NCBI GenBank assembly: GCA_021801225.1 | Contig: JAJYYF010000019.1 | Coordinates: 5,494-69,493, forward strand | Source: Candidatus Micrarchaeota archaeon | GTDB lineage: Archaea; Micrarchaeota; Micrarchaeia; Micrarchaeales; CABMGC01 | Reading direction: 5' to 3' | Length of the DNA stretch: 64,000 nt | The notes under the pieces: generated by a model | What the model saw: the letters and a program-made list of their open reading frames with translations, nothing else | Databases searched by the model: none | Told to the model about the DNA's origin: nothing | Part shown: positions 11,703 through 31,558 of the stretch, piece by piece | How the letters are laid out: each line of letters opens with the position of its first letter | How positions within the stretch are numbered: the stretch's first letter is position 1 | Translations under genes and position numbers: made by a program

Positions 11703-12326
11703 ATGATCTTCGTTGATGAAACAAAGAAAGCAATAGACATAATTTTGCTTAAAGATAAAAATCCGAAAGCAATGAGCGTTGCACAATGTTTAGGATTTTA
11801 CTATAAAGCTTCGTTAATTCCGTTGATACTTGCCGTAATAGTTGCTGCTTTAATCAGTACTGCATTTGTAGGAACAATTGGAGCATTGTTAACAACCGTA
11901 GCTAGTAATTCTCACCTAGGATCATTAATTGGATTATTTGGTACTGCAGTAACTTTAGTAATAGTAGTATTAGTAGTTGTATATTTTTGGATACTTATGC
12001 CTTTAGGACTTCTTATTGATGCTTTAATTTATCACATTTTTGGTAAATTATTAAAACAATTCAAGCAAGGTTATAATGCAACATTCAATGCAATGGTATA
12101 CGCAAGCATGGTCTATATATTACTGTTCTTCCTTCTTGGAATACCTATTGTTGGAGCCATAGTGGGATTAATAATTTTTATATGGAGTTTAGTTAGTATC
12201 ATTGTATGGATGGGAAGATTCCAGAAAATAAGTTGGGTAATGTCCCTAGTAGTTTTAATTGTTACCTGGGTAGTGGTAGTTATAATATTCCTATTACTTG
12301 CAGGAATAGCTACTAAATTAATATAA
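11703..12326 (+). CDS. Integral membrane protein, unknown function
   Basis: ATG-initiated ORF with about five hydrophobic helices. Confidence 0.5.
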   Translation: MIFVDETKKAIDIILLKDKNPKAMSVAQCLGFYYKASLIPLILAVIVAALISTAFVGTIGALLTTVASNSHLGSLIGLFGTAVTLVIVVLVVVYFWILMPLGLLIDALIYHIFGKLLKQFKQGYNATFNAMVYASMVYILLFFLLGIPIVGAIVGLIIFIWSLVSIIVWMGRFQKISWVMSLVVLIVTWVVVVIIFLLLAGIATKLI

Positions 12327-14432: not shown

Positions 14433-14443
14433 AGACTTCCAGT

Positions 14444-14456
14444 TTGTATAAATGCC
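14444..14456. repeat. Third, slightly diverged copy of the casposon target sequence (TTGTATAAATGCC)
   Basis: 12 of 13 identical to the two target-duplication copies at 14475-14487 and 25227-25239. Confidence 0.7.
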
Positions 14457-14474
14457 GGGGTTATATATAACCCC
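14457..14474. repeat. 18-bp perfect palindrome GGGGTTATATATAACCCC, formed by the left TIR tip fused to the right TIR tip (putative casposon scar)
   Basis: The first 13 nt equal the left TIR start (14488-14500). The last 14 nt equal the right TIR end (TTATATATAACCCC). Confidence 0.7.
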
Positions 14475-14487
14475 TTGTATAAATGCT
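14475..14487. repeat. Target-site duplication, left copy (TTGTATAAATGCT; 14 bp if the preceding C is included)
   Basis: Exact direct repeat of 25227-25239, immediately abutting the left TIR. Confidence 0.85.
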
Positions 14488-14540
14488 GGGGTTATATATA
14501 GAAGCCTCAAATGTCCCCCTTTTCTAACATAGTTTTAGCA
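14488..14540. repeat. Casposon left terminal inverted repeat
   Basis: GGGGTTATATATAGAAGCCTCAAATGTCCCCCTTTTCTAACATAGTTTTAGCA matches the reverse complement of 25173-25226, with 3 substitutions and a 1-nt G-run difference. Confidence 0.9.
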
Positions 14541-14705
14541 TGGAAACGGTCGCTGTCGCCCAGATTCATGAATGGGAAGCAAAGAAAAAATCCCTTTTGT
14601 GAAAATGTTTATAAATTTTGAAGATCCCCAAAATGAAGTTAAGGACTTTTGTCCAAAATCTCTATTACAAGAAAGTATTTAAATAAGTATTCCCTAATCT
14701 TTTTT

Positions 14706-15392
14706 ATGATAGCTGAAAAAGAGATAACAAAAACATTCCTAAAAGCAATTTCTGAAACTTTTAAAGCATATAATGAAAGGGGAGCAAGAAGCAATAAAAA
14801 ACTTATACCAATTCATAAATGGTTTGCTAAATATTTGGAAAATAATCTTGGAAATGGATACTCTGTGATGAGTTTAGGTAATGGTGGAGAAGCAAATATA
14901 AACGGAAAATATTACCCTAAAAATTTGGATATAACTGTTTTGAAAAGTGGGAAGATTTTAACTACCATTAGTTTTAAATTTGTAACCTCTAATTATAAAC
15001 AAAATGCCAACAATTACTTTGAGAATTTATTAGGCGAAACTGCAAATATTCGTAGAGTTAATGTTGGTTTTGCACATTTTTTAGTTCTTAGAGCTAAAAC
15101 CCCATATTATGATAAGAATAAAGGTAATTTAAGAGGAAAAACCATAAAAATAGAGACTATAAACGACCACGATTTATCAAAATATGTCAAATTATTCCAA
15201 GATAATGACTTCCCTCATAAACCAGATGTTTTAGGAATATCTATATTAGATTTTAATGAAAATGGAAAACCATCAATCACAAATTTGGAAAGATTTGGTA
15301 TATCAAAATCTAATTCAGATATTTTAAATAAAGAATTAGGGTTGAAAAAGTTTTTAGATAGATTTATTGCTCTTTGTGAATTAAAGAATTAA
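14706..15392 (+). CDS. Putative type II restriction endonuclease (casposon cargo)
   Basis: It converges on the adjacent N6-adenine methyltransferase and overlaps its 3' end by 29 nt. Possible PD-(D/E)xK-like core (NLDITV...ISFKFV). I recognise no family match. Confidence 0.4.
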   Translation: MIAEKEITKTFLKAISETFKAYNERGARSNKKLIPIHKWFAKYLENNLGNGYSVMSLGNGGEANINGKYYPKNLDITVLKSGKILTTISFKFVTSNYKQNANNYFENLLGETANIRRVNVGFAHFLVLRAKTPYYDKNKGNLRGKTIKIETINDHDLSKYVKLFQDNDFPHKPDVLGISILDFNENGKPSITNLERFGISKSNSDILNKELGLKKFLDRFIALCELKN

Positions 15393-16890
15393 TAATAATT
15401 TTTTGATGGTTTAATTCATTTGTAGGATAATTTTTTATTTGTTTGCTTGTTACTGATTTGTAACCCCCAGAAAAATCTTTCCCTGTAATTTGAATATACT
15501 TATAAAAATCTTCTGAACTCAAAATATTGGTAATAATATCCCAATTTATTTCTTTTTTCTTCTTAATAATAAATATTCCAGAATAAACAAAAATGTCTTC
15601 TTTTAACTTATAGAAGTTTATTCTATGATTAACTAATGTGCTTAATACGATCTTTTCATTATAAGAAGTTTGGATCCCTTGACTTCTCCCAAATTCATAC
15701 CAAGAAGCATCCTCATCAATATCTCTTTTTAGTAATTCTTCTTTATTTTCTAATAAATAGTTGTAAGCATTTGAATAATATTTTTTTAATTCTTCTTCAG
15801 GAATTGGAATAAAACGATTAGCTTGTCTTTTGTATGGAAATAAAATATGTTTAATTTCTTTTTCGTTTCCTTTGTAAGTAGAACCTTTAACAACTTTATA
15901 CAATATTTTCTTTTCAATCCACTTATTATTAAATAAAACTAAAGTATCTTTTTCTTTAGTTACTTCCCCAATATAGATTTTATCCCTCAATGTTGCAAAA
16001 CCATATTGAACATCAAAAAAATCTGAAACTTTTTTATTTGTGTTTGAATAAAGATTTTTCAAAAAATCCATTTCTTTATTTCCAGAAAAAGACCAATCCT
16101 TTATTTCTAAGTTATTATAGTTAACCTTATTCACTTCTTGTATTTTATTATTCATTAATTCCTGATAAACAAAATAATCTTTTTTTTCAAAAAAGTTTAT
16201 TATGGTTATGGCAGTGTAGGTGGAAAAATTTTTGAAAACCTTATTTGCTTTAAAATCAGTTAATCTTTTTACTACTCTTTTTTCTTTTAAATACTTTCTA
16301 AATTCAACATAAGAAGAATTATGCAGGTAACTATTTGGAGTGATATACCCCAAAATTCCTTTTTCATTTAATAATTTAAATCCTAATTCAAAAAAAGAAA
16401 TATAAATATCTATTGTTCCATTTGAAAAGATAAACTCTTTCTTGAGTAAATCTCTTGTTTTTTTATCTAAATTATGTATTCTTATATATGGCGGATTTCC
16501 TACGACAAAATCAAAAAAATTCATATATTCTTTATATTTTGTTAAGGTATTATCTTTAAATATTTTCCAATTAATATTTAGTTTTCTGTCTAATTTATTT
16601 TCAATTAAATGATTTAAATTAGATAAACATTTATTAAATTCTATCTCATCAATTTCTATGCCATAAACATAATCCTCTAAATACTCTTTTATCTTCTCTT
16701 TGGGATATTTTTTATTTAGTAGAGTATCAATAATTCTTGAAACTATTATTTTTAGAAAAGCACCATCACCACAAGCAGGGTCTATTATCTTTTTATTTAT
16801 TAAATTATTATTAGAGAAACCAGAAGAATCTAATATTTCTTCTACTATCCAGTCTGGAGTAAATACTTGTCCTAATGTCTTATGTTTCAT
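15364..16890 (-). CDS. N6-adenine DNA methyltransferase, gamma class (TaqI/Eco57I-like), casposon cargo
   Basis: Motif X-like GQVFTP, motif I IIDPACGDGAFL, motif IV VGNPPYIRI, then a long target-recognition region. I place the start at internal Met66. The ORF continues upstream to 17085 through a fragment resembling a different methyltransferase class. Confidence 0.8.
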   Translation of the reverse strand: MKHKTLGQVFTPDWIVEEILDSSGFSNNNLINKKIIDPACGDGAFLKIIVSRIIDTLLNKKYPKEKIKEYLEDYVYGIEIDEIEFNKCLSNLNHLIENKLDRKLNINWKIFKDNTLTKYKEYMNFFDFVVGNPPYIRIHNLDKKTRDLLKKEFIFSNGTIDIYISFFELGFKLLNEKGILGYITPNSYLHNSSYVEFRKYLKEKRVVKRLTDFKANKVFKNFSTYTAITIINFFEKKDYFVYQELMNNKIQEVNKVNYNNLEIKDWSFSGNKEMDFLKNLYSNTNKKVSDFFDVQYGFATLRDKIYIGEVTKEKDTLVLFNNKWIEKKILYKVVKGSTYKGNEKEIKHILFPYKRQANRFIPIPEEELKKYYSNAYNYLLENKEELLKRDIDEDASWYEFGRSQGIQTSYNEKIVLSTLVNHRINFYKLKEDIFVYSGIFIIKKKKEINWDIITNILSSEDFYKYIQITGKDFSGGYKSVTSKQIKNYPTNELNHQKIIINSLIHKEQ

Positions 16891-17239
16891 TGTATCCCCT
16901 ATTTTATTTTCTTGTTTAGGTTTATCCTGATAAGCAGGAGAAGTTATTATAGTATCTATTTGTGCATTATTTTCTTTGAAATAGTGAAATTTATCTATTG
17001 CATCTCCAATCAATATTATCGGGTTGTTATCTTTATTAAATTGTATATCTTTTGAAAGTTTATTTTTAGGCATAAATATCACCATTTATTGCATACAGCA
17101 TCCGCTAACAAATACGTTCTTACTTTACTACCTTCACCCAGAAACAGTCGGCTATTTGTATAGCGTTGCCATAACGCAATTTTTGTAGTTATTTTATGTA
17201 AATAAAAGTTTATATACTTTAGTATCATTCAATCAGCTA

Positions 17240-17902
17240 TTATTTTTGTAATTTCGTTCCGCACTTCGGGCAATAGTTTCCTCTAGAAGGATTTTGTTTA
17301 CCGCACTTCGGGCATTTTACTTTATTGGGTTTTTTGTTGTTTCCCGACTGCCATTTCAAATTATATAAATCAATGGCTCTTGGTATTGTAAATTTAGTAT
17401 CGAGTGAGTGAAATTTGCCATCCATATACAAATTCTGCATCAATCGCATAAAATTGATATAGCCTTCTGCCGTTTTGTCGATCTTGCCAATAATCTTATC
17501 ATTTTTGTAAGTCTTACTATAATGTTTTATTATACCATTATCCCACATTACAAAGACATCTGGCTTTAATAGATGCATGACTTTTGTAGCCCCAACTTGT
17601 TTTATCCCAGAATTTGATATCGTATTATAGATTCTCATTATCCTTTCTACTGTTTTTTTATCGTCTAATCTAATGTCCTTGAAAGACTTTTTATTGAAGA
17701 AAACAAAGTCCTCTTTCTCTAAATTAGCCAAGTCTCTTTTGAAGTTCTTTAAATTGAAAGATGTTAATATGAATCTGAAATAAGCAAAATTCCATGTTGA
17801 AAGAAGCAAAATTATTGATTCGTACTCGTGTCCTTCTTTGTAGAGGTCTAATGCCCACCTGTATACTTCCTCTCTAATCTCGTCTTTTTTAGTATTTGAC
17901 AT
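17240..17902 (-). CDS. Hypothetical protein with a C-terminal double zinc ribbon, last gene of the cas1 operon
   Basis: CPKCGKQ...YCPKCGTK at the C-terminus. The start overlaps the cas1 stop by 14 nt. Confidence 0.5.
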   Translation of the reverse strand: MSNTKKDEIREEVYRWALDLYKEGHEYESIILLLSTWNFAYFRFILTSFNLKNFKRDLANLEKEDFVFFNKKSFKDIRLDDKKTVERIMRIYNTISNSGIKQVGATKVMHLLKPDVFVMWDNGIIKHYSKTYKNDKIIGKIDKTAEGYINFMRLMQNLYMDGKFHSLDTKFTIPRAIDLYNLKWQSGNNKKPNKVKCPKCGKQNPSRGNYCPKCGTKLQK

Positions 17903-19100
17903 TTAATTTACCCATAACCTTGCCATAAACCTTGATTCTCTTGCCTTCTCTTACGTGTTTCTGCATATACCACAGAGTTGACTTATTTATACTTAACTTC
18001 TTGCGGTCTTGTAGTGTTAGGCTCAGTACCTTACTGCGAATATCTGTGTTGTCCTCTCGCTTTATCTTGAACTCAGGTACGTCGAATTGAAGCTTGCTGG
18101 ACTTACCAATTATGTAGTTAGCCAGCAACCTAATGTTTTCATATAAGATATTCTGGTAGCTGTAGTATTTGCCATTGTAGAACGCTCTGGCATTGAAGTT
18201 CAGTCTTATCTTCTCGATTAGTGCTTTTGCTGTACTCTCTCTAAGCCTTATGTTGTAGTTCTCCGTTACGATAAAGTCCGCCTTCTTCAGCTTCTTTTCC
18301 TCTAGTAGCTGTATCACCGATAGGTCTACCAGCCACCTATAAAGCTCTTGAACGTCATACACAAGTGAGGCTCTGCTATTCGATAGCTCATGCAAGAAGC
18401 TTATCGATGGATCAAGACCTATGGAATTGAGGTCTTTTCTCACTTCTGATTCCAGCACCGCATAGCCGTAGTTCAGCAAGGCGTTAATCTCATCAGAGGC
18501 ATTGCGGTTATGCGAGTTCAGAACGTTGTTTCTGCTAACGAACTTGAACTCTGGACATAACTTATTGAACGCCTTTAGAATCTGCGACCAATAAATATCG
18601 GCGATTCTGCCTTCATACATCATAAGGTTGCGGTAATCATAAGTAGTCTTCAATTTGAACATGGATTCTTTATTCGACTCTGAACTTATTGTATTGGTAT
18701 CAATCTCTCTATAGTACTTTGATAGCTCGGTTAGCAGATTTATCGACTGCTTAACCTTCTCTTTGACTATCGGATAAGCAACGCTGTACCGTCTTTTGCT
18801 ATCCTGATATGCCTCATACTGCCTTAGCCTCAGTTTACTTGATAACGTTTCTTTAGGCAACGTAACGCTTAGCAGATTGCCGTTCCAGTTGAGCATTGTG
18901 ATAGGGATATTGTGCTTTACCAGCCATCGCATAGCCTCAAAGCTTATGCTACCAGTATGCCCGTCTACTATTACAGAATCGTGCTTTATCTGGTGCGGAT
19001 AGTATTCGTATCGCTCATTGTCCAGCTTGTTCTGAATGATTAGCCGACGCTTGTCTACGCTTATGTTCGTTCCGAATCCAGAGATCAGTAGTGGGTTCAT
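17889..19100 (-). CDS. cas1: Cas1-family integrase (casposase)
   Basis: Cas1 signature LNYGYAVLESEV...IGLDPSISFLHE...SLVYDVQELYRWLVD, with conserved E/H/D-E positions. There is a C-terminal basic HTH-like tail. The ATG overlaps the upstream stop (ATGA). Confidence 0.9.
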   Translation of the reverse strand: MNPLLISGFGTNISVDKRRLIIQNKLDNERYEYYPHQIKHDSVIVDGHTGSISFEAMRWLVKHNIPITMLNWNGNLLSVTLPKETLSSKLRLRQYEAYQDSKRRYSVAYPIVKEKVKQSINLLTELSKYYREIDTNTISSESNKESMFKLKTTYDYRNLMMYEGRIADIYWSQILKAFNKLCPEFKFVSRNNVLNSHNRNASDEINALLNYGYAVLESEVRKDLNSIGLDPSISFLHELSNSRASLVYDVQELYRWLVDLSVIQLLEEKKLKKADFIVTENYNIRLRESTAKALIEKIRLNFNARAFYNGKYYSYQNILYENIRLLANYIIGKSSKLQFDVPEFKIKREDNTDIRSKVLSLTLQDRKKLSINKSTLWYMQKHVREGKRIKVYGKVMGKLNVKY

Positions 19101-20260
19101 TTTTTCTTACCTCTCATCTCGTTTTGAATCTTGAAGAGTTTACTCTTATCAGGTCTGTACCTATTTTCTGTTTCATATTCTCGCAATCTATTTCTGAAAG
19201 CAATGTCATTATGATTCAATATTCTGATTATGGTAACGTAATCATAAAGAGGTACATAAAAGCCATTGCCAGCTTTAATAACCAATTTTTTAATCAGTTT
19301 TTTACTGGAAAGTGGATCGTTACCAGATTTAAATATTTTAGTTACTTCATTCAGTGTTTCAATGTCGAGCCAATTTGCCCATAATCCGAAAGATAGTAAA
19401 GTAGAAACAAATTTATCCTTCTTAGCTAACGCTTCTAATTTTTTTTTATATTGTTCATCATCAATTAAATCAGCACTATCTAAATAAGATTCCAAAAGTG
19501 GTAATTTAGGATATCCATAACCGTTAAATTCAAGTTCCGAATCGGTAAGAAAATCTGCGCTAATTTTTATATCGTCCATAAATCTCTGTATGTTTTTTAC
19601 AAAATTAATATATTCGTTCCATTCTACTCCGAAAGCAAAAACCGATTTGGCATCTTTAGGTATTTTATCTAAATTAGTTTTAATTAATTCGTTTATAACC
19701 TCTTTAATAACTACCTTCTCTGTGTTGAATTGAATTTTCACAGTATTTAGATTGTTTTCAAGTACACTTGGATATGATATGTTATGCGAAGAGATATTTG
19801 GTAGTGGTTTGGGATTTTCATTAAATAATGTGTTTGACAAACCACCAACGTAACTGCTACCTTTATCCTTGAGTTCTAAGAGTTCATACATGAGTTGCCA
19901 AATGCCTTTGTAATAAGCTTGCCCTTTTTCAGTAAGTATATAAACTGGCTTCATGCCTTTTGTAAACTTTTTAGCAGGTTTTATTTCTGCTCCTTTCTTT
20001 CCTATCATAACTTCTTCTTTTTCAAGAATGATCTCTTTCTTTACGATTATTTTTTCTATAGTATCCTCTGTTTCTAACTTCTGTAAAATTTTTGTTAATC
20101 CAGCAGGAGAAAGTAAGGTTTTTGTTTGTAACTCTGTAAAGGTCGCTCCGTCTATTATTCTTCCGTCAGGGTTGAGTTTCTTACTATCGTGTATTATTGT
20201 TAGAATCTTATCTCTGTTCTCGTTACTTATCCTCTTTTGTCTCTGGTATCTATCGTGCAT
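19097..20260 (-). CDS. Winged-helix DNA-binding protein with a large uncharacterised C-terminal domain, first gene of the cas1 operon
   Basis: N-terminal wHTH-like segment TFTELQTKTLLSPAGLTKILQKLETEDTIEKI. Translationally coupled to cas1. Confidence 0.5.
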   Translation of the reverse strand: MHDRYQRQKRISNENRDKILTIIHDSKKLNPDGRIIDGATFTELQTKTLLSPAGLTKILQKLETEDTIEKIIVKKEIILEKEEVMIGKKGAEIKPAKKFTKGMKPVYILTEKGQAYYKGIWQLMYELLELKDKGSSYVGGLSNTLFNENPKPLPNISSHNISYPSVLENNLNTVKIQFNTEKVVIKEVINELIKTNLDKIPKDAKSVFAFGVEWNEYINFVKNIQRFMDDIKISADFLTDSELEFNGYGYPKLPLLESYLDSADLIDDEQYKKKLEALAKKDKFVSTLLSFGLWANWLDIETLNEVTKIFKSGNDPLSSKKLIKKLVIKAGNGFYVPLYDYVTIIRILNHNDIAFRNRLREYETENRYRPDKSKLFKIQNEMRGKKK

Positions 20261-20389
20261 ATAACATCATATAGTTACTTTACTCAACTAAGTATATAAA
20301 TATGCGCTAATGCCCGATAGTAGTGTGGTAAACATCGCCGTTGCGCCAAAACTGCGTTTACTTTGTACTAATATAATGAGGATGATTTG
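20261..20389. promoter_or_regulatory. Divergent promoter region of the two casposon operons
   Basis: A 129-bp gap between divergent genes. TATA-like AGTATATAAA lies at 20291-20300, about 30-40 nt upstream of the minus-strand ATG. AATATAAT and a GAGGA Shine-Dalgarno-like sequence precede the plus-strand ATG at 20390. Confidence 0.3.
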
Positions 20390-21052
20390 ATGAGATTCAG
20401 CAAAAGGTACAATAGATTTGAAGACTGGCTATCCACTCAGGATAGGCATACTAGCTACATAAGGCGAATAACACGCCTTCATTCGCTCTATCCCAGAGCG
20501 AGCCTTGATCAGCTAAGGGGTCATGCCAGAGCAGAGGCAAAGAGGCTCAGCAAAGGCACGCCTAAGCCCGTATCCGCTAGATCATGGAATACGCTCAGCC
20601 CAAGAGAGCAGTTGGCTAGAGAGCGTGCCTTAGAGGTGCTGAGCCATGCCAGAAGGTCTGGGCAGTCGCTATCACATCTAAGCAGAGAGTATAAAATATC
20701 GGTCAAAACAGTTCTTAGAGCCACTCAAGGCTTCGAGAAGGCAAAGGGTCGCTGGAAACCTAAGAAGATAGATCATATCTCACGCATAATGGCGATAAAC
20801 GAGAACGACAAGGAGCTATTCATAGAGATAACAGATTCTCGCTATGCGACGCTTATCGGCAAGTACCACAGCGCAGTAAAGGAATACCTCAATACTGGCA
20901 ATATCGATGTTTTAGCTGAGTTTGAAGGCAAGAAGGTCAAGGATAGCTCAGGTAAGTGGCATACCCTAGAAACCGATCCATCAGCCATACGTGAGATTAA
21001 TGCTCGGAGAGAAGAGCCAGAGTTCTACGATATTTATCAGGTGAATGTATGA
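20390..21052 (+). CDS. HTH-containing protein, unknown function (casposon core, markedly higher G+C)
   Basis: HTH-like segment LSREYKISVKTVLRATQG. It is the first gene of a translationally coupled chain; its stop overlaps the next ATG. Confidence 0.5.
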   Translation: MRFSKRYNRFEDWLSTQDRHTSYIRRITRLHSLYPRASLDQLRGHARAEAKRLSKGTPKPVSARSWNTLSPREQLARERALEVLSHARRSGQSLSHLSREYKISVKTVLRATQGFEKAKGRWKPKKIDHISRIMAINENDKELFIEITDSRYATLIGKYHSAVKEYLNTGNIDVLAEFEGKKVKDSSGKWHTLETDPSAIREINARREEPEFYDIYQVNV

Positions 21053-21387
21053 TACAATGTCCATATTGTGAAAGCAGTCTTGGCAGTGAAGGATCGTACA
21101 GGGTTCATAAGCACCGATTCCATAAGGGTCTGGACTACAGGCAACCAGTAGTTACACATGAAGAGGCTCGGCAACCAGCTACAGAACCAATAGTAGCTGA
21201 GCATGAACCAGTTTTGCATGAAGCACCAGAGCCACCGCAAGAGCATCCAGAACCGCAAGAACCAGAACATCGTGGTCGTAGCGCAGTAGAGCGAGGTAAA
21301 GGTGGCGACGATGGTCTTGCTATACTTGGTGGTATTGGAGCTATTGCGTTTGTGATTATCCTAGCACTGCTAGGCAAGAAACAGTGA
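21049..21387 (+). CDS. C2H2 zinc-finger protein with a Pro/Glu-rich linker and a C-terminal transmembrane anchor
   Basis: CPYC-x12-HKHRFH, then PE-rich HEPVLHEAPEPPQEHPEPQEPEH, then the hydrophobic tail LAILGGIGAIAFVIILALLG followed by KKQ. Confidence 0.5.
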   Translation: MIQCPYCESSLGSEGSYRVHKHRFHKGLDYRQPVVTHEEARQPATEPIVAEHEPVLHEAPEPPQEHPEPQEPEHRGRSAVERGKGGDDGLAILGGIGAIAFVIILALLGKKQ

Positions 21388-22000
21388 TTATCATGGATAA
21401 CATCAACGACAAGATAACGGATAACAACGATAAAAAGATGTTTCAAAGCGATAAAAATAGCGTTAAAATAGATGTAAAGATAATTGATAAGATAACGGAT
21501 AAAATCAACGACAAGATAATGGATAACAACGATAAAAAGATGTATAAAAACGATAAAGATACGGATAAAAAGCAGAAATTGTTACCCGATATTATCGGCT
21601 ATTTCTTTGATTCAGCAGAAAAGAACAATCTGGATAACAAAAAAGTGAACAAGGTCGTAAAAGACGTACAATACCTCTTCAAAAAAGACCCTAAACATAA
21701 GGATATCAAGTGTTTTATATGCGAGAACGATTAGAACTGCACCACATAGCTGGCAGAAACAACTCAGAAATGACTGTTTCGCTATGCGTTTCTTGTCATA
21801 ATGAGATAACAAGGCATCAGAACACATGGGATATACGCTGGACTAATCAAAACAACACAGAAACACTGCAAAACGCCTTCATAATGCAAGGGATCAGGGA
21901 GCTACTTTTGCTCAAGTACGTCAAAACATGCGATTACACATACTACTGTTTGGCTGATTCGCTGTGCTATGGTATAGGAAAGTCATTGGTGAGCGAATGA
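21384..22000 (+). pseudogene. HNH endonuclease split by a -1 frameshift at ~21725-21734, with a D/K/N-rich repetitive N-terminal extension
   Basis: Frame A ends ...KCFICEND-stop. Frame B continues ERLELHHIAGRNNSEMTVSLCVSCHNEI. Joined, they give a canonical CxxC...HH...N...CxxCH HNH motif. Confidence 0.65.
21402..21543 (+). repeat. Two 40-bp direct repeats (21402-21441 and 21504-21543, 1 mismatch) spaced 102 bp apart, inside the HNH N-terminal extension
   Basis: ATCAACGACAAGATAA(C/T)GGATAACAACGATAAAAAGATGT occurs twice, encoding INDKI(T/M)DNNDKKM. Confidence 0.85.
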
Positions 22001-24642
22001 ACATAGCGTTACGATGTTATATTGATAACAAACTCAATGCACAAAACGATAATGTTATCCATTATAACGATAATCTGGTGCTTGTTTTTGATACAGAAAC
22101 AACGATAGACCAATATCAGAATCTAAAGTTTGGTTCTTATGGTATATGGGAGAATGGTAAACTTGATGAGTTTGGATTGTTTTATGATAACAATTTGGAT
22201 AACAACGACGCCAAAACGTTATCCGATTATGCAGACAAAAAGCACATAAAACTGATAACAAAAAGCCAATTTTTAGACATGTTTATCGATTATGTCTATA
22301 AAAGAAGGGCTATCTGTGTGGGTTTTAACTTGCCTTTTGATATATCACGCATAGCAATAGACTACAGTATATCGAGAAAGGATAACAACGCCTTCTCTTT
22401 CAAGCTGTTTGATAACGTCTATATGCCCAGAATTATCATAAAACACATCGATTCTAAGCGGTCATTGATAAACTTCTCTACGCCTTACTCTAAAAACTTC
22501 AAGAAAGTAACCAGATACAGAGGCACATTCGTTGATTTGAGGACGTTATCTTTTGCGTTAACCAACGATAACCACTCACTTGAAAGTGCTTGTGAACTGT
22601 TCAACGTTGAGCATAAGAAGTTGAAGACTGAGGAACACGGCAAGATAACGCCAGAATACATACAGTACAACATAAACGACGTTTTTGCTTCTTATGACTT
22701 GTTTCTCGCATTGAAAAGCGAGTTTTCAAAGTATAAACTGCCCACGCCATTGAAAAAACTGTTATCCCCAGCATCTATAGGCAAGGAATACTTCAAGGAG
22801 ATGGGCATCAAACCCTTCTTAGAACTGAATCCAACGTTTCCCAAGTACATGCTAGGCTGGATAATGACTACCTATTACGGCGGTAGAACTGAGGTGCATA
22901 TACGTAAAACGCCAGTAAAGGTATCATATATCGACTTTACGTCTATGTATCCATCGCAATTCGTGTTACTCGGCTTGTGGGATTACGTTATCGCAGATAA
23001 CATAGACGTTACAGAAGATAACAAATTCGCTGAATTACTGGATAACATACAGCTAAACGACCTTACAAACAAGGAGCTATGGAAAACGCTCAATGGAATT
23101 GCTCTAGTAGACATGGATAACGATATTTTGCCACTCAGAGCCAAATACAACAGCAAGATAGCGTATAACATAGGGTTGAACTACGCAAAAGGCAAGGCAC
23201 TTTGGTACACTTATCCAGATATCATAGCGTCAAAACTGCTCACTGGAAAGACACTGAAGGTTATCAAGGCTTACAGATTCGTTCCTAAAGGCAAACAGAG
23301 TAATCTCAGCACGATAAACCTATTCGGCAAGAGCATAGAACCAGAGAAAGATGACTTTATCCGCTATTTAATCGAGCATCGGTTAGAGATAAAGCAGAAA
23401 TTGAAGCAAGACACGGATAACAAAGACCTCAAGAAAGAGGACTTTATCGCCAAAATAATCGCAAATGCAACATCTTACGGCATTTTTGTTGAGGTAAATA
23501 CGCAAAACGAGAGAGTAAACGCTGAGATATACGGGATAAGTCCGTTTACATGCGCAGTAAACAAAAAGGAACAGTTTGGCAGAGCGTTTAACCCTATCCT
23601 TGCGACTATGCTAACATCAGGATCAAGGCTTATACTCGCAATGGTAGAGGCATACGTGAAAGAAAACAAGGGTTATTTTGCATATTGCGACACCGATGCC
23701 TTATTCGTTAATCCAGAGCTGGTAAGCAAGATTCAAGCATTCTTCAAGCCTCTAAATCCTTACACTAATCATGTTGAGATGTTCAAAGTTGAGAATGATG
23801 AGGATGGTAAACCTCTTGATAATGTCTGGTTTTATGGTATATCTGCAAAGCGGTACTGTTTGTACAACATAGAGAATGACAAAATCGACATCCTAAAGCA
23901 CTCTTCTCATGGTCTAGGTGGTTTGATAGGCATAAGCGAGGACGAAGTAAAGGATATTTGGAAAGACATCTTAGACCATCACTACAATAGGCTATCAAAA
24001 GAGGTAATGGAACGCAAATATTCAAACAAATTCGTGATGGGCAAGCTCGCATTGACATCACCCTTTGTCTTACAGCGTTTTAGACACACAAACAAGGATA
24101 AGAGGCTAAAACCGTTCAACTTTGTTATCGTTGGGATAGGGCATAGGTTAGACCCTTCAACTAAAGAACAGATAATACCACTATTGGCTTACACCAATGA
24201 CACAGATATCGTGCCGTTTAGCCCATTTACTGATTACAAAACAGGCAAAGAGTACAAAGATAACACAAGGTTCTATTGGAAACCACTACCAGAGTTCCTT
24301 TTTGCTTATGCAGACCACAACGACAACAAGTACGATGGCGAGATTGGAGAATTGAAAAGAAAACGGCTCTTTATCAATGACATCGAACACATTGGCAAAG
24401 AGTCGAACAATCTAGAGGAAAGCGAAGTTATCGGTGTTTCAGATAACGATTACGTTGTTTACGATAACAAAACGGGGCAAAAGATAGCAGATGTTATCAG
24501 AAATATGACAACAAAGGACGCTAGACGTATTGGATTATCAAAAAGGCACTTATTTAGGTTGAAGAAACAAATAAAAGAAGGAAAGAAGATAGTGTTAAAG
24601 AAGAAAACTGTGAATAAGTTGTCTAAAGTTGGTGTAAAATGA
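21997..24642 (+). CDS. polB: Family B DNA polymerase (casposon PolB)
   Basis: ExoI LVFDTETT, ExoII YNINDV, motif A IDFTSMYPS, motif B KIIANATSYG, motif C YCDTDALF, and a KxY motif (SAKRYCLY). The ATG overlaps the upstream stop (ATGA). Confidence 0.9.
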   Translation: MNIALRCYIDNKLNAQNDNVIHYNDNLVLVFDTETTIDQYQNLKFGSYGIWENGKLDEFGLFYDNNLDNNDAKTLSDYADKKHIKLITKSQFLDMFIDYVYKRRAICVGFNLPFDISRIAIDYSISRKDNNAFSFKLFDNVYMPRIIIKHIDSKRSLINFSTPYSKNFKKVTRYRGTFVDLRTLSFALTNDNHSLESACELFNVEHKKLKTEEHGKITPEYIQYNINDVFASYDLFLALKSEFSKYKLPTPLKKLLSPASIGKEYFKEMGIKPFLELNPTFPKYMLGWIMTTYYGGRTEVHIRKTPVKVSYIDFTSMYPSQFVLLGLWDYVIADNIDVTEDNKFAELLDNIQLNDLTNKELWKTLNGIALVDMDNDILPLRAKYNSKIAYNIGLNYAKGKALWYTYPDIIASKLLTGKTLKVIKAYRFVPKGKQSNLSTINLFGKSIEPEKDDFIRYLIEHRLEIKQKLKQDTDNKDLKKEDFIAKIIANATSYGIFVEVNTQNERVNAEIYGISPFTCAVNKKEQFGRAFNPILATMLTSGSRLILAMVEAYVKENKGYFAYCDTDALFVNPELVSKIQAFFKPLNPYTNHVEMFKVENDEDGKPLDNVWFYGISAKRYCLYNIENDKIDILKHSSHGLGGLIGISEDEVKDIWKDILDHHYNRLSKEVMERKYSNKFVMGKLALTSPFVLQRFRHTNKDKRLKPFNFVIVGIGHRLDPSTKEQIIPLLAYTNDTDIVPFSPFTDYKTGKEYKDNTRFYWKPLPEFLFAYADHNDNKYDGEIGELKRKRLFINDIEHIGKESNNLEESEVIGVSDNDYVVYDNKTGQKIADVIRNMTTKDARRIGLSKRHLFRLKKQIKEGKKIVLKKKTVNKLSKVGVK

Positions 24643-25133
24643 GCGATCATTCAGATAGATGTTATGTTCCTTTAACAAAAGAGGACTTGATCGAATTAGC
24701 ATTTAGAGCCATTGAAGTTTTAAAAGAAAAAGGAAAACCTATAAATGATTGTAAATGTATGGTTATATCACAAAATACTGCTAGTCATTATTTATCTCCA
24801 GATAAAAAAATAGGTTTACATGATTTCGATATAATAGCTTTTTTTACCAATCTAAAAAAAGAAACCCACCAACAACCCATAAAAGGAGACTCTAAGCTAA
24901 CAAAGTTTGGAGATTATTGCAAACAATGTCCAAAATCTGATTATATAGCGAGAAAGATGGATATATTTTGTAAGAATATAAAACTTTTAGAAAATATGAA
25001 TCTAGAAGACTCAGTTAAAGAGTATTTTAAAAATTCAGGAACAAAGTGGATTAAAGAAGTAGGAAAAAGACCAATAGTTTGTATAGTCCCAGAAAAACTC
25101 TGTGGAAAAACTTTATGGTCTCCAGACAATTAA
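24639..25133 (+). CDS. Hypothetical Cys-rich protein translationally coupled to polB
   Basis: ATGA overlap with the polB stop. I recognise no family. Confidence 0.4.
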   Translation: MSDHSDRCYVPLTKEDLIELAFRAIEVLKEKGKPINDCKCMVISQNTASHYLSPDKKIGLHDFDIIAFFTNLKKETHQQPIKGDSKLTKFGDYCKQCPKSDYIARKMDIFCKNIKLLENMNLEDSVKEYFKNSGTKWIKEVGKRPIVCIVPEKLCGKTLWSPDN

Positions 25134-25172
25134 ACATTTTACTACACTTTCTTTCTGCCAACTAATCTTTGG

Positions 25173-25226
25173 TGCTAAAACTATGTTAGAGAAGGGGGAC
25201 ATTTGAGGCTCTTATATATAACCCCC
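25173..25226. repeat. Casposon right terminal inverted repeat
   Basis: TGCTAAAACTATGTTAGAGAAGGGGGACATTTGAGGCTCTTATATATAACCCCC is the reverse complement of the left TIR. Confidence 0.9.
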
Positions 25227-25239
25227 TTGTATAAATGCT
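25227..25239. repeat. Target-site duplication, right copy (TTGTATAAATGCT)
   Basis: Exact repeat of 14475-14487. Its last 4 nt are the 3' end of the tRNA-Glu gene. Confidence 0.85.
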
Positions 25240-25310
25240 CCCACCGGGATTTGAACCCGGGTTGCGGGATTGAAAGCCCCGCGTCCTTGGCCGTGCTAGA
25301 CGATAGGAGC
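25236..25310 (-). tRNA. tRNA-Glu (anticodon UUC), 75 nt, CCA not encoded
   Basis: Hand-folded cloverleaf: acceptor GCUCCUA/UGGGAGC, D stem GUCU/GGAC, anticodon stem CGGGG/UCCCG with loop CUUUCAA, T arm CCGGG-UUCAAAU-CCCGG, discriminator A. Confidence 0.9.
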
Positions 25311-25388
25311 GATATATCGGTCTATATATTATTTGTTTAGTAATATAAATATTACTGCTTAATTATCATATTGCTTGTGGTGATTTAT

Positions 25389-26030
25389 GTGGAGGGCTTA
25401 TTTGTATGCATAGAGGGAATAGATGGTTCTGGAAAGACCACTCAAGCTAAGCTTTTAATAGATAAAATTCAAGGTTCTGGAAAGAAGGTCTCATTATTTT
25501 CTTATCCGACACATGACTCAAGATATGGGAAAATAATAAGAGAGGAGTTTCTTGCAGGAAAGGTAGATATGGGAATTGAAGAGCAGTTCTTATTGTATTT
25601 ACTTGATATGCAATCCGACAAAAAGAATATATTAGAAAGTGTATCAAAAGGTAATATTGTAATAAGTGAAAGATATTTCATATCAACAATCGCTTACCAA
25701 TCAGCAGGAAGCTTTGATTATGAAAAAGCAAAAGCAGTCGAAGAACTTATGTCCCTTCCAAGACCTGATATCATATTTTATATAGATATCAAACCTGAAA
25801 TTGCTTTTGAAAGAAAAAAGAAACAAAAGGGTAAAACTGACAGATTTGAAAGCGCAAAGGAGTATATGAATAAGGTTTATAATGTATATGAAAAGCTTTA
25901 CTCAGAAAGATATGGGAGTAAGACATGGATAAGAATAGATGGCAGTAAATCAGAACAGGAGATATCAAATTTTATATTTAGTGCAATAGATAATTATATT
26001 AGTGAGGATAAACAAAAAAATTTAGAGTAG
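25389..26030 (+). CDS. tmk: Thymidylate kinase
   Basis: P-loop IEGIDGSGKTTQ and a DR-type motif (SERYFIST). I prefer the GTG at 25389 from the N-terminal spacing, but the ORF is open from a TTG at 25371. Confidence 0.85.
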   Translation: MEGLFVCIEGIDGSGKTTQAKLLIDKIQGSGKKVSLFSYPTHDSRYGKIIREEFLAGKVDMGIEEQFLLYLLDMQSDKKNILESVSKGNIVISERYFISTIAYQSAGSFDYEKAKAVEELMSLPRPDIIFYIDIKPEIAFERKKKQKGKTDRFESAKEYMNKVYNVYEKLYSERYGSKTWIRIDGSKSEQEISNFIFSAIDNYISEDKQKNLE

Positions 26031-26038
26031 GTAATTGA

Positions 26039-26587
26039 ATGATACTATCAGATTATGATTTAGAGAATATGATAAGAACAGCTAGACTTGAGATAAAGCC
26101 ATTTAAAAAAGATATTATACGTGAGAATGGAGTAGATTTTAGATTAGATAATCAAGTAGCAAGACACAATAAAAAACTCGGGGAGAGTTTTGTATTAGAT
26201 CCATCAAATGAGGAGCACGTTAAAAAAGAGTATGTTCTTGAAAAAAACAAGAAGGAGATAATAATATATCCACATGAACAGGTACTTATGTCAACTTTAG
26301 AGTATTTAAAAATGCCTGATAATGCGATGGGTTTTGTTGAATTAAGAAGCACATGGGCAAGACACGGTTTAATGATGCCACCAACAATAATTGATGCAGG
26401 ATTTTCTGGCAATGTAACATTGGAGGTATTCAACGCTAGTTCTAATGCAATAATGTTAAAACCAGGATTAAGATTTGCACATGTAATATTTGATACTACA
26501 CTCAACAGAGTGAGTAATCCCTATTCTGGTTCTTATTTTGGACAAAAAGGAGTAAGGTTACCTAAGGTAATTAAGATAACAAAGTAA
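26039..26587 (+). CDS. dcd: dCTP deaminase (dUTPase superfamily)
   Basis: GFVELRSTWARHGL and IDAGFSGNVTLEVFN motifs. Confidence 0.85.
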   Translation: MILSDYDLENMIRTARLEIKPFKKDIIRENGVDFRLDNQVARHNKKLGESFVLDPSNEEHVKKEYVLEKNKKEIIIYPHEQVLMSTLEYLKMPDNAMGFVELRSTWARHGLMMPPTIIDAGFSGNVTLEVFNASSNAIMLKPGLRFAHVIFDTTLNRVSNPYSGSYFGQKGVRLPKVIKITK

Positions 26588-26667
26588 TAATATAAATTGT
26601 AAATAAAAAATAAGAAAAAAATTAGAAGATAATGTAGAAAAATAAAAAATAATTTTTAAAGTTATTT

Positions 26668-26949
26668 TTATCTTGATAGATCGTTTAGTTCTTCTTTGCT
26701 AGCTGATTCTTCTTTTGAGCCAGCTGGACCTGAAACTAAAACAACATCTCCTACATTCTTTACGCTTTTGTATAATATACTTTTTTTCTTAAGTACAATA
26801 TTCGCATCGTTCTTTGCGCTTTTCCAAGGAGTCATAAGCAACCTGCTGACTTCACCTTTTTCAAGGTCTATTATAACATCTTGTACATCGCCAAGGTACT
26901 GGCCCTCGTCGCTGTATATATCCATTCTGTATATTTCAGAGATCTTCAT
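26668..26949 (-). CDS. PRC-barrel domain protein
   Basis: Typical small archaeal PRC-barrel pattern: IYSDEGQYLGDVQDVIIDLEKGEVSRLLM. Confidence 0.6.
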   Translation of the reverse strand: MKISEIYRMDIYSDEGQYLGDVQDVIIDLEKGEVSRLLMTPWKSAKNDANIVLKKKSILYKSVKNVGDVVLVSGPAGSKEESASKEELNDLSR

Positions 26950-27019
26950 AAAATCGCCTCGATAATACTACAAGAAGCAGTTATTTAAAGCTTTTCTTCA
27001 TTTTAAGAATAGAGGAAAA

Positions 27020-28177
27020 CTATGGCTGAAGCCAATCTATTTCGTAATAATCTGCATTACTGCCCTTAAGAAGTATCTTTTTAATCTTGTAATAAGTAAC
27101 AGCAGTTTCCCTATCTGTTATTGCAAGTATTAACTCCAATTTTTTATCTTTTGCTTCTTTTATTGCACCAGCAAACTCCTTACCTCCTATATACTCTTCC
27201 TCGCTCAAAGAAAGCATTGCGTATCTAGGTGGAAACATATCTGGACTTTCTGCTTCACCACCTCTTCTGTGGTACAGAATAAAATCTAATTTTATTTTTT
27301 TATTTACAGATACTCCGGGAACTGCAAGAATAAATGTTTTTCTTACTGAATGAGCAACACGAATCGCGCGTGCCCATTCTGATATTAATAAACGCGAGTC
27401 TTTTGGAAACACATGTATTACGTGTTTCGAGTGCACCCATTCTTTATCATCTTTTTTAACTGGTTTTGCTCCTGGAAAGTAAACTCTAAAATGTGTACCG
27501 AATTTAAAACCGGTTTTAATTACATAACCCTTTTCTCTCCAATCAGAGTACACCTCAAAAAGTTTTAAGAAGTCCTTCCTTCTTGCCTTTGCAGATGATA
27601 GAATTTTTTTCTTATTAAAAGAGTCAGAATTCAAAATATTTTTTTCTAATAAGAAATAAGTTTCATAAATATCAAGTTTATTTAATTTTCCTCTTTCTGG
27701 AGCCTTATACGAACCATACTGGCCTAACCAAAAGTTCTCATACAAAAATTTTCCCTTTTCATCATCATTTATTATTGAGACTAAATCTGATTGAAAAAAG
27801 GTGCCATCTAAATGATATTGAGGTAATGATAATTTTCCAGAAGGATACTCTTTTACTGGGGCTTTATTTGAATTTTCTTTAAAAAATACAGTATCTTTTG
27901 CTATTAAGCCTCTATCACGCCAATCTTTATATGTAAAGTACTTTGCAATGAATTTTTTAGAATTATTAAACATAGATAATAACTCTGCAAATGTAACTTC
28001 AGTAGATTTTTTTTTACAAACTGCATTTCTTATCTCAATAAGATACAACACTTCAAAAATGTTTAACTTTAAAATTTTATCTTCAAAGGTTCCAAAAAAA
28101 CCCTTTTTTAATATATCAATGCTTGACTGATCCTTAACTATTAATTTATTTTTAGAAATATACTCTATTTGAAGCAT
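27020..28177 (-). CDS. endA: tRNA-splicing endonuclease, unusually long multi-unit form
   Basis: Catalytic unit YSDWREKGYVIKTGFKFGTHFRVYF...HSKHVIHV...VAHSVRKTFILAV (Tyr/His/Lys triad). It is preceded by a degenerate duplicated unit and followed by an extra ~100-aa C-terminal unit. Confidence 0.85.
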   Translation of the reverse strand: MLQIEYISKNKLIVKDQSSIDILKKGFFGTFEDKILKLNIFEVLYLIEIRNAVCKKKSTEVTFAELLSMFNNSKKFIAKYFTYKDWRDRGLIAKDTVFFKENSNKAPVKEYPSGKLSLPQYHLDGTFFQSDLVSIINDDEKGKFLYENFWLGQYGSYKAPERGKLNKLDIYETYFLLEKNILNSDSFNKKKILSSAKARRKDFLKLFEVYSDWREKGYVIKTGFKFGTHFRVYFPGAKPVKKDDKEWVHSKHVIHVFPKDSRLLISEWARAIRVAHSVRKTFILAVPGVSVNKKIKLDFILYHRRGGEAESPDMFPPRYAMLSLSEEEYIGGKEFAGAIKEAKDKKLELILAITDRETAVTYYKIKKILLKGSNADYYEIDWLQP

Positions 28178-28282
28178 GTACTCCCTGCGTAAACATTTAC
28201 ATTGATAATTATCAAGCATATTTATTAAACTTAAGCCTATTAAGTTCAATAATAAATTATTAAATTAAAATCCGCTTTAATT

Positions 28283-28825
28283 TTATTTCCTTTTTGTTTT
28301 TTGTAGTTCTTCAGACAAAGAGTTTAACTCTATCCCTGTAAAAAATGTTGTTGAAAATAAAGAAGACTCTATTGTGGTCTTTGATTCATTTAAAAATCTG
28401 CTGGATTTTAGAATTTCTTTTGATTGATCTATTAAGCGTTTTGATAAATGAATCAATGGCATTGCTTCCGAAGCAACCATGTCAGATATATCTAAATAAC
28501 TATTAGGCATTGTTTTATCTCTTTTAAGTTTGTTTTTTCTTTGCAAACCAGATAAATCTGTAACCTTTGCCTCATTCCAGTTATCAACATTTCCTAGACC
28601 CAACTGTAATGTACTTCTAAATAAATTTACCGATGATATTCTAAGGTTTTCAGAAACCAACTCCGAAACAATAGGATTTCTTTCATCCTTTGTAAGAAAG
28701 TATAATGATTGTGCTTCTTGTTTTATTTTTTTAAGCTTTTGTCTAAATGTATTTTTTATTTCAATTATCTTGATTTCATTATCCTTGTTTTTGAGTTCTT
28801 CCTTTTTTTGTTTAGATTCTTTCAC
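28283..28825 (-). CDS. Hypothetical protein with a Lys/Glu-rich (probably coiled-coil) N-terminus
   Basis: ATG ORF in an otherwise unassigned interval. No motif recognised. Confidence 0.4.
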   Translation of the reverse strand: MKESKQKKEELKNKDNEIKIIEIKNTFRQKLKKIKQEAQSLYFLTKDERNPIVSELVSENLRISSVNLFRSTLQLGLGNVDNWNEAKVTDLSGLQRKNKLKRDKTMPNSYLDISDMVASEAMPLIHLSKRLIDQSKEILKSSRFLNESKTTIESSLFSTTFFTGIELNSLSEELQKTKRK

Positions 28826-28926
28826 AAAAATCGTAAAGTACTATCTTTTTTAAGATATAAATATTTAATGTTTAAATTAGGACTCAATTTGAAAAAGATT
28901 AAAGCTTTTTATTACAAATATAAAGT

Positions 28927-30478: not shown

Positions 30479-30522
30479 ATAAATTAAATAAAAGAAATAA
30501 AGAAATAAAAATCTGTAAAAAA

Positions 30523-30597
30523 TTACAGATCTCCTACTCTTCTCTTCTGGGCTCTTCTTACTCTCTTTCTTCTTTTCTTTACCCATTTCCAGCGCAT
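30523..30597 (-). CDS. rpl41e: Ribosomal protein L41e-like Arg/Lys-rich mini-ORF (absent from the ORF track)
   Basis: Translates to [24 protein letters not shown]. The frame is open upstream to 30651 and adds ...[11 protein letters not shown], resembling longer archaeal L41e annotations. It lies in the gap between bud32 and the next gene. Confidence 0.55.
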
Positions 30598-30728
30598 TCT
30601 TCCTTTCTTTTTCCATTTTCTAGGTATACTTCCCAGTGAAACACCGATTAACTATGCAAATATGTTTTGTGGCGTAAGAATAATAATACTTGCGTTAAAT
30701 ATATTCTAAAAGAATATAATGTGATTTT

Positions 30729-31511: not shown

Positions 31512-31558
31512 CTTTTTATTTTTTCTTTTATTTTTAATTTTTTATTTTGTGATACTTT

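Follow-up and report, generated by a model that had tools for sequence, protein, structure and literature searches.

The CRISPR adaptation module is proposed to descend from casposons, few of which, to our knowledge, have been shown to move. A 64,000-nucleotide stretch of a Candidatus Micrarchaeota contig (JAJYYF010000019.1; the whole stretch is called the window here) carries, beside a tRNA-Glu gene, a unit in which a solo Cas1 and a family B DNA polymerase (PolB) lie between inverted repeats. The locus raises the question of whether this unit is a casposon that moves, how it finds its tRNA gene and what such elements leave behind when they go. We hold with high confidence that the unit, 10,738 bp long at positions 14488-25225, is an intact casposon (a self-synthesizing DNA transposon) of family-2 type in the chromosome of a Micrarchaeia archaeon, since terminal inverted repeats (TIRs), a 14-bp target-site duplication (TSD), an overlap with the tRNA gene, an empty site, Cas1 and PolB were all found. 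The element is otherwise an ordinary member of its family, and what it adds is evidence of mobility, a generalised rule for targeting through the tRNA T-loop, and a recurrent probable footprint.

Boundaries and core genes of the element

The ends of the element come from a repeat search, which returned two 53-nt TIRs, TIR-L at 14488-14540 (plus strand) and TIR-R at 25173-25225 (minus strand), that are 94% complementary with three substitutions; the runner-up inverted repeat near the element in the same search was only 36 nt long at 72%. An earlier note on this DNA, made from its letters alone, had proposed repeats of 53-54 bp with three substitutions and a 1-nt difference in a G run. Both repeats and the substitutions stand, but the length is 53 bp and the G-run difference falls away, the C at 25226 being better read as the first base of the TSD. 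TIR-L, with the tip GGGGTTATATATA, is 100% identical to the tRNA-proximal TIR of a related element in L011 (loci fetched for comparison carry L numbers), and the extent of TIR-R was also read directly from the right end.

Both TIRs are abutted by a perfect direct duplication, CTTGTATAAATGCT, at 14474-14487 (left, tRNA-distal copy) and 25226-25239 (right copy); the earlier estimate of 13-14 bp resolves to exactly 14 bp. At the left end the order is TTTGTATAAATGCC, GGGGTTATATATAACCC, C plus TTGTATAAATGCT (together the 14-mer) and TIR-L (GGGGTTATATATAG), and at the right end TIR-R (CTTATATATAACCCC) is followed by CTTGTATAAATGCT and then by CCCACCGGG, the 3' end of tRNA-Glu on the minus strand. 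The integration target, or "leader", is an intact tRNA-Glu(UUC) gene (25236-25310, minus strand; ARAGORN; Rfam RF00005, 55.7 bits) with its discriminator base at 25236. Its last four nucleotides (AGCA) lie inside the right copy, an overlap that had been noticed before, and the gene is left intact by the insertion. The duplication is a true TSD, because the near-identical strain L007 has one copy and no element; the empty sites of L004 and L010 likewise hold one copy only. All five features that the earlier note had observed are present, none more than 1 nt from where it had placed them.

The casposase gene (17889-19100, minus strand) encodes a Cas1 of 403 aa with a C-terminal helix-turn-helix (HTH) tail. 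The protein had been recognised as Cas1 from its motifs, and the PF01867 profile proposed at that time as a check agrees (PF01867, 2.3e-60; TIGR00287, 3.1e-56). Its best solved-structure relative is 6OPM of MetMaz-C1, which we take to be the Methanosarcina mazei casposase (5.7e-80, 37% identity over residues 2-400 of 403, HTH tail included), as against 1e-27 at best for other PDB Cas1 chains, and the EG, FLHE and YDxQE motifs are identical to those of 6OPM in the alignment. The Cas1 tail resembles the PolB tail (BLASTP: E 5e-7, 28% identity and 70% positives over 43 aa), and such alike tails in the two proteins are a hallmark of family 2 (PMC4046053). The Cas1 of Methanocella arvoryzae is 56% identical, and MetArv-C1 has been named as a casposon (PMC4046053); the next-closest named relatives are labelled Nitrosotalea or Nitrosopumilus (Cas1 56-60%, PolB about 45%). 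As had been stated, cas2 and an array are missing: the window yielded no repeat-spacer array, and its Pfam-annotated gene lists, which cover about 3.4-64 kb of it, name no other cas gene.

The polymerase gene (21997-24642, plus strand; 881 aa) encodes a family B DNA polymerase, as judged from a homologue profile and a match of the AlphaFold model; it ends in an HTH and is probably of the casposon "PolB_CDTDS" type. Single-sequence searches of Pfam, NCBIfam, PHROG and the PDB (phmmer) gave no match, and the Pfam DNA_pol_B search that had been suggested as a check of this protein would therefore have misled. Standard profiles are silent probably because the protein belongs to a divergent cluster: PolB_CDTDS, described by Kazlauskas et al., includes the casposon polymerase of Aciduliprofundum boonei (PMC7544198), and motif C reads YCDTDA here with a homologue consensus of CDTDS. 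When 18 of its 2,815 homologues were combined into a profile, every PDB match was a family B polymerase (4.8e-6), and motifs A, B and C lined up. The AlphaFold model (pLDDT 86.9, pTM 0.84), which ends in a helical bundle at residues 825-877, matched 208 PDB chains in Foldseek at E<=1e-3 (best 3.9e-13), the best 50 of the 208 all being family B polymerases. Profile and fold matches are led by Pol alpha and archaeal PolB, not by phi29, and some homologues carry precomputed PF03175 matches besides PF00136. The invariant alignment columns, including the ExoI, ExoII, A, B and C motif positions, are all intact, as are the Cas1 motifs; profile, fold and columns thus agree with the polymerase motifs that had been read from the translation.

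Directly upstream of polB lies a gene for a putative small HNH-type nuclease of 93-96 aa (21710-22000, plus strand; phrog_119, 2.9e-4; ZorE HNH, 3.4e-3). An HH...N...CxxCH pattern is visible in its open reading frame (ORF), which is 90-95% conserved at the same position in related elements, and the matches are consistent with the HNH gene that had been seen there.

Empty, filled and differently filled alleles

Empty sites were located by lookup of the exact protein encoded by the flanking kinase gene, which led to L004, L005 and L007. In all three, the kinase gene adjoins a thymidylate kinase gene with only the tRNA between them. L007 is empty at the site, and its flanks are 100% (2,760 bp) and 99.7% (1,726 bp) identical to the window. 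In the alignment, the empty site reads kinase start, TTTGTATAAATGCC, GGGGTTATATATAACCCC, TTGTATAAATGCT, tRNA, with one copy of the 14-mer, whereas the window has two copies 10.7 kb apart. The earlier note had predicted an empty site made of the kinase gene, a single TTGTATAAATGCT and tRNA-Glu; the single copy is there, but an older scar, taken up below, lies between it and the kinase gene.

A third state is found in L009, whose flank is 99% identical to window positions 25173-36026. Another casposon occupies the same tRNA-Glu position in the opposite orientation, and the interior of this casposon (1-400) resembles not the window's element but the one in L011, matching its ResIII-cargo end at 93.5% identity. 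Three alleles (empty, window element, other element) are thus present at this site in one species-level population. The element has been mobile recently, because strains that are nearly identical carry the site filled, empty or filled by another element; these alleles show that the window casposon inserted recently and that its site has been reused. The suggestion in the earlier note that the element may still be mobile is thereby strengthened to mobility in the recent past, and the three site states in near-clonal strains stand as natural evidence of it.

That the TIRs and the TSD might be products of assembly, a concern the earlier note had voiced, was considered and rejected: the element or its left junction was recovered in contigs from three ENA samples and one NCBI assembly, with a match of 99.99-100% across either. 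The exact Cas1 protein is encoded on several contigs.

A target rule in the tRNA T-loop

The fetched loci hold 27 distinct junctions between a tRNA gene and a TIR, every one of which has the form TCAAATC-N8-N14-GGGGTTATATATA. Insertion is always 4 nt short of the tRNA 3' end, and TCAAATC, the T-loop motif (25248-25254 in the window, minus strand), always occupies positions -15 to -9 from the insertion point (27/27 junctions). The target tRNAs are Glu(UUC), Glu(CUC), Pro(UGG), Pro(CGG), Ile(UAU), Arg(CCG) and Gln(CUG), and the element is found in either orientation with respect to the tRNA, as has been reported in M. mazei (PMC4779613). Perfect 14-bp duplications flank five complete related elements. 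For the A. boonei casposase, mutagenesis mapped TCAAATC at the same distance upstream of the insertion point (PMC6614799), and by analogy TCAAATC would be the recognition motif of the casposase here. This T-loop "ruler", with its 14-bp stagger, holds for at least seven tRNA species across the 27 junctions, which would explain how one type of integrase can hop between tRNA genes.

By analogy with the biochemistry of family 2, integration may be pictured as follows. The Cas1-HTH casposase would bind the two TIR ends (3'-...ACCCC), read the T-loop segment TCAAATC as a leader-like anchor and join the 3' ends of the element to target strands 14 bp apart, with the first cut 4 nt inside the tRNA 3' end. 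Gap filling would then produce the 14-bp duplication and restore the tRNA together with the target. Copying of the element is assumed to fall to its own family B polymerase, probably helped by the HNH nuclease and the DNA-binding proteins.

Classification and comparison with known systems

The element has the features of the casposon superfamily (Cas1 without linkage to cas2 or an array, a family B PolB, and TIRs flanked by a TSD) together with most of those of family 2 (an HTH in Cas1, a similar HTH in PolB, an HNH gene in the core, a 4-nt overlap with the tRNA and a 14-bp TSD). These features support the complete casposon at the tRNA-Glu 3' end proposed in the earlier note and point to the family-2 type. 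The comparison with euryarchaeal family-2 elements drawn there is apt for the family features, but not for the host, which belongs to the DPANN archaea.

A family-1 or chimeric element, suspected from the Nitrosopumilus and Nitrosotalea relatives of PolB, was ruled out, because Cas1 has an HTH and matches 6OPM, PolB has CDTD and an HTH tail, the element targets a tRNA gene, and Thaumarchaeota have already been found to harbour elements of family 2. Family 1 (NitAR1-C1, Nitrosopumilus) is characterised by a protein-primed PolB, a Cas1 without HTH and a mostly ef-2 target (PMC6563490, PMC8464041); it shares Cas1, PolB, TIRs, TSD and site-specific insertion with the window element, but its HTH-less Cas1, ef-2 target and thaumarchaeal host have no counterpart here, and the PolB of the window is probably of another type. 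NitNCS1-C1 of Ca. Nitrosotalea okcheonensis (Thaumarchaeota) is a family-2 element outside Euryarchaeota, located at a tRNA-Pro gene (PMC6563490). It differs from the window element in phylum, in tRNA and in its polB, which has been reported as fragmented, whereas polB in the window is intact.

Compared by features, AciBoo-C1 (family 2, A. boonei, with integration characterised in vitro) is alike in its Cas1-HTH, HNH and methyltransferase cargo, and probably also in its CDTDS-type PolB and HTH proteins. It likewise sits at a tRNA 3' end, with a 14-15-bp duplication and TCAAATC 9-15 bp upstream (PMC6614799, PMC4046053). The differences lie in the host (a thermoacidophilic euryarchaeon, as against a DPANN archaeon of about 30% guanine-plus-cytosine (GC) content), in positions +1/+2 of the target (CC there, AG at the tRNA-Glu(UUC) target here) and in other cargo. 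In Methanosarcina, family-2 casposons show 14-bp duplications, site reuse, tandem insertions and solo TIRs, with both orientations at tRNA sites and presence or absence at the level of strains (PMC4779613). They differ in having tRNA-Leu and intergenic targets with a CGCA motif. For the M. mazei casposon, translocation has been shown in vivo (PMC10359463).

Spacer acquisition by CRISPR Cas1-Cas2 is likewise leader-anchored and staggered, and duplicates an adjacent short sequence. It differs from the present case in that the window has no array, Cas2 or interference genes and the inserted DNA is the element itself. Tn7 recognises attTn7 inside a conserved gene and inserts just downstream, leaving the gene intact; the site logic is similar, but the transposase is unrelated. 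Tn7 has been compared with casposons before (PMC4046053).

Weighing the casposon reading

Several points weigh against an intact, recently mobile family-2 casposon, or against parts of that account. The tRNA-Glu sites, including the window's with its AG, depart from the "CC at +1/+2" requirement of the A. boonei casposase; CC stands at these positions only at tRNA-Pro, Ile and Arg sites, and tRNA-Gln sites have GC. In principle, the empty alleles might have lost an element by excision instead of never having held one. Between the two TIRs there are 3 differences in 53 positions. The scores behind the HNH assignment are weak, and an "HTH + HEAT" identity for a 387-aa core protein, described below, is no more than partly supported, by a medium-confidence model and Foldseek matches at E>=0.02. 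The placement of Cas1 near the family-2 casposases is a ranking by similarity, and the integration chemistry, the recognition of the T-loop and the role of the polymerase are carried over from work on A. boonei and M. mazei.

Among the other explanations of the element, a fixed, dead relic (an ancient, immobile casposon inherited vertically) is very improbable. In its favour, most related loci in Micrarchaeota genomes are internally deleted and retain just the 3' part of cas1 and a TIR next to a tRNA, in some cases with a 3' part of polB as well, and the three differences between the TIRs also speak for a relic. Against it, the core ORFs are all full length with their motif residues intact, the site is polymorphic among strains with 99-100% identical flanks, the TSD is perfect and the GC content of the core shows no drift toward that of the host. 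A leftover of a decayed CRISPR-Cas system, a solo cas1 beside unrelated genes, is hardly credible. Public annotation does name the protein "CRISPR-associated endonuclease Cas1", but the gene is accompanied by neither an array in the window nor another cas gene in the lists covering about 3.4-64 kb, it lies inside a unit bounded by TIRs and TSD that is missing as a block from the empty site, and it is syntenic with a casposon-type PolB in every full-length relative. There is as little to be said for a tRNA-integrating provirus, plasmid or island moved by a tyrosine or serine recombinase with cas1 and polB as cargo: tRNA 3' ends are classical attachment sites and restriction-modification-type cargo is present, but library searches found no integrase or recombinase family in any ORF of the element, which has 53-bp inverted repeats, a 14-bp TSD, a T-loop distance fixed in 27 junctions and both orientations at the same kind of site, and no att repeat copying the tRNA 3' half.

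An older scar and its possible bearing on exit from the site

The first reading of the window missed a third, older copy of the target and an 18-bp palindrome next to it (14443-14474), both present in filled and empty alleles. The older copy, TTTGTATAAATGCC at 14443-14456, is slightly decayed and forms the distal flank of the putative footprint; it differs from the proximal copy at its two end positions, which is consistent with greater age. The perfect palindrome, GGGGTTATATATAACCCC at 14457-14474, has the form of two TIR tips joined through a shared TTATATATA (GGGG + TTATATATA + ACCCC). As TTATATATA occurs in direct orientation in both TIR tips (14492-14500 and 25212-25220), a deletion from one copy to the other would take out the whole element, and precisely this 18-mer would remain between two target copies. 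The palindrome is probably the footprint of an earlier casposon, produced by excision or deletion. Because the scar is also present in the empty alleles, the current element would have inserted into the tRNA-proximal target that the earlier casposon had regenerated.

The exact 18-mer was found at 19 loci of the metagenome collection, two of which (L047 and L049) show the tRNA and duplication geometry; the other matches lie in unrelated contexts or in longer hairpins. In L047 (2638-2683) the 18-mer begins 10 nt after a tRNA-Gln gene and is flanked by a perfect 14-bp duplication, GCTATATTACCTAG, and in L049 (1525-1568) it begins 10 nt after an intron-containing tRNA gene (confirmed by Rfam) with a flanking duplication of 12-14 bp. 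A fused-tip palindrome with flanking target copies therefore recurs at three independent tRNAs (Glu, Gln and one with an intron).

One empty site departs from this layout. L005 (1388-1431, corresponding to window 14443-14487/25226-25260) keeps the palindrome and the distal target copy, while the 14-mer on its tRNA side is unrelated (AGCACGTACTTATT, tRNA sense). Its kinase protein is unchanged, although its tRNA-Glu allele carries compensatory stem changes. The variant may have arisen by recombination at the scar or by exchange of the flank next to the tRNA.

As to how the scar arose, host-mediated slippage between the 9-nt repeats is the route that we favour. Nearly precise excision of Tn10 is a transposase-independent deletion between short direct repeats within the inverted ends, and leaves a small palindromic remnant between the target duplications. 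It offers the best analogy for the 18-bp scar; the transposases are unrelated, and the likeness is one of presumed mechanism. That the casposase, rather than host replication slippage, made the palindrome is unlikely, though not far-fetched. Such a scar could be a footprint of Cas1-mediated excision, or a minimal TIR-TIR duplex integrated in the manner of a spacer. Formally, the order tRNA, 14-bp copy, 18-bp insert, 14-bp copy, element, 14-bp copy resembles the leader, repeat, spacer, repeat of a CRISPR locus. Were the scar the work of the casposase, then the tRNA leader, the 14-bp copies and the inserts would together form a natural array of repeat-spacer type, assembled by a solo Cas1, and so a living intermediate of the proposed casposon-to-CRISPR transition.

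It is improbable that the palindrome is a native hairpin, such as a terminator of the kinase gene or the tRNA, which resembles a TIR by chance or was copied by casposons and records no footprint. It is indeed a perfect GC-clamped hairpin, most of its 19 exact metagenome matches lie in unrelated contexts (several as longer hairpins), and in L005 the flank on the tRNA side does not repeat the distal one. However, the palindrome equals exactly the product of a deletion between the 9-nt direct repeats in both TIR tips, and at the three independent tRNAs it starts exactly 10 nt after the tRNA between locus-specific 12-14-bp duplications, which is the geometry of a casposon.

The footprint reading bears on how casposons leave a site. 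In M. mazei, excision in vivo was clean, with a single target and no footprint, whereas the original casposon model had predicted a persisting duplication and a footprint (PMC10359463). The 18-bp scar of TIR tips that persists between target copies at the window site differs from the clean excision seen in M. mazei. If read correctly, the recurrent scar is a footprint of the sort expected under the original model, and none was seen in the only in vivo study (PMC10359463). It makes the exit of a casposon from its site directly testable and may bear on how such elements leave.

Related loci also contain tandem arrangements: in L011, L012 and L013 an older TIR is separated from the tRNA by a newer element. 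Since the newer element is on the tRNA side in all three, arrays appear to grow from the tRNA end, as CRISPR arrays do from the leader. The second TIR, which is solo or belongs to another element, abuts the tRNA-distal target copy in each (L012 14810-14863, L011 13067-13105, L013 3232-3285).

Host and relatives of the element

The host is a tiny, symbiotic Micrarchaeia (DPANN) archaeon of about 30% GC and not a euryarchaeon; its EF-1alpha clusters at 90% identity with a protein of "Candidatus Micrarchaeia archaeon". The range of family-2 casposons is thereby extended to DPANN archaea. A full-text search, which leaves many subscription papers outside its reach, found no paper linking casposons to Micrarchaeota, to other DPANN groups or to tRNA-Glu.

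Relatives were sought by scanning one genome per species with the window Cas1, which gave 31 loci. Most of these (26) are in records titled Micrarchaeota, Micrarchaeaceae or Micrarchaeum, among them the complete genome of Ca. Micrarchaeum sp. A_DKE; two are labelled "Nanoarchaeota", two lie in one unclassified archaeal metagenome-assembled genome (MAG) and one is from Nitrosopumilaceae. Cas1 and PolB homologues at least 90% identical to those of the window also appear under MAGs named "Candidatus Marsarchaeota archaeon" and "Nitrososphaeria archaeon", as well as under Micrarchaeia, which reflects either a mis-binned mobile element or very recent transfer from phylum to phylum within a shared habitat. 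The order of the core (cas1, a 387-aa gene, a 221-aa gene, small genes, HNH, polB) is kept in full-length relatives. Cargo at the cas1 end varies, with an N6/N4 methyltransferase and a ResIII helicase in L011 and glycosyltransferases in L013.

Internally deleted derivatives, present in many Micrarchaeota genomes, take several forms. In L017 (8694-10965), polB at about codon 430 is fused back-to-back to cas1 at about codon 79; further cases are L019 (9813-10390), L013 (58-3285) and L028-L045, and at some loci no more than the final 30-130 codons of cas1 survive. A TIR at 10 nt from the tRNA still bounds such derivatives, some of which also have intact 14-bp duplications, and they may be non-autonomous elements. 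The complete genome of Ca. Micrarchaeum sp. A_DKE (L039, NZ_CP060530.1, 10001-13713) has a casposon remnant beside tRNA-Pro(CGG), made up of a cas1 tail fragment, a methyltransferase-like gene and a TIR tip; as this archaeon is cultivated, the remnant offers a possible experimental handle. L030 has two casposon right ends (at 3782-3830 and 11882-11967), and an identical 14-mer with an identical tRNA-Glu 3' sequence follows either of them. Since ARAGORN recognises a single complete tRNA in this locus, one of the two 3' sequences seems to be a duplicated partial fragment of the tRNA, about 8 kb from the other.

Other core genes and cargo

The core gene next to cas1 (19097-20260, minus strand) is predicted to encode a 387-aa protein with a winged-HTH-like N-terminal domain and an all-helical C-terminal domain, with homologues at the same position in L012 and L015. 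Its AlphaFold model has a pLDDT of 69; Foldseek gave weak PadR/MarR-type matches (E 0.02-0.5), and the fold search returned no HEAT-repeat match, although the all-helical C-terminal domain is confidently modelled. The 221-aa core protein (20387-21052, plus strand) possibly contains an HTH, given a sub-threshold HTH_28 match; it is 78-89% identical in L011-L016 and 39% identical in the Nitrosopumilaceae element L022. Two conserved small proteins follow on the plus strand. One (112 aa, 21049-21387) has, as read from its sequence, a C2H2-like zinc finger at its N-terminus and a hydrophobic helix at its C-terminus, and is conserved at 50-77% in relatives. The other (116 aa, 21384-21734) contains an internal 102-nt tandem duplication, seen in a repeat search; at window positions 21390-21570, 79 nt of it align at 86% identity, and a DKITDNNDKKM-like peptide is repeated.

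At the cas1 end, the cargo includes a 573-aa type II (Eco57I-family) N6-adenine DNA methyltransferase (15364-17085, minus strand; PF07669, 2.2e-25; PADLOC MTase_II, 5e-89, full length). Convergent with it is a gene for a 228-aa protein with no assigned function (14706-15392, plus strand; gene call in L001), which had no match in Pfam, NCBIfam, PADLOC, PHROGs or the PDB; that it is a restriction partner of the methyltransferase is speculation. Between the methyltransferase gene and cas1, overlapping the cas1 end by 14 nt, is a gene for a 220-aa protein with a C-terminal zinc ribbon (17240-17902, minus strand; PF13240, 4.9e-6), which has no homologue in the related elements compared. The methyltransferase and its neighbours at the cas1 end are swappable cargo. 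At the polB end lies a gene for a 164-aa protein specific to the window element (24639-25133, plus strand). The libraries searched gave no match for this protein, and no informative one for the N-terminal domain of the 220-aa protein or for the 221-, 112- and 116-aa proteins.

GC content is 37-42% in the cas1-polB core (18000-24000) and 23-25% in the methyltransferase cargo (15000-17000), compared with about 30% in the host. These differences between core, cargo and host indicate that the element is a mosaic import of differently sourced parts. Just beyond the right end of the window, on the same 87-kb contig, lies a Y1 (IS200/IS605-type) transposase gene (L066 1-312).

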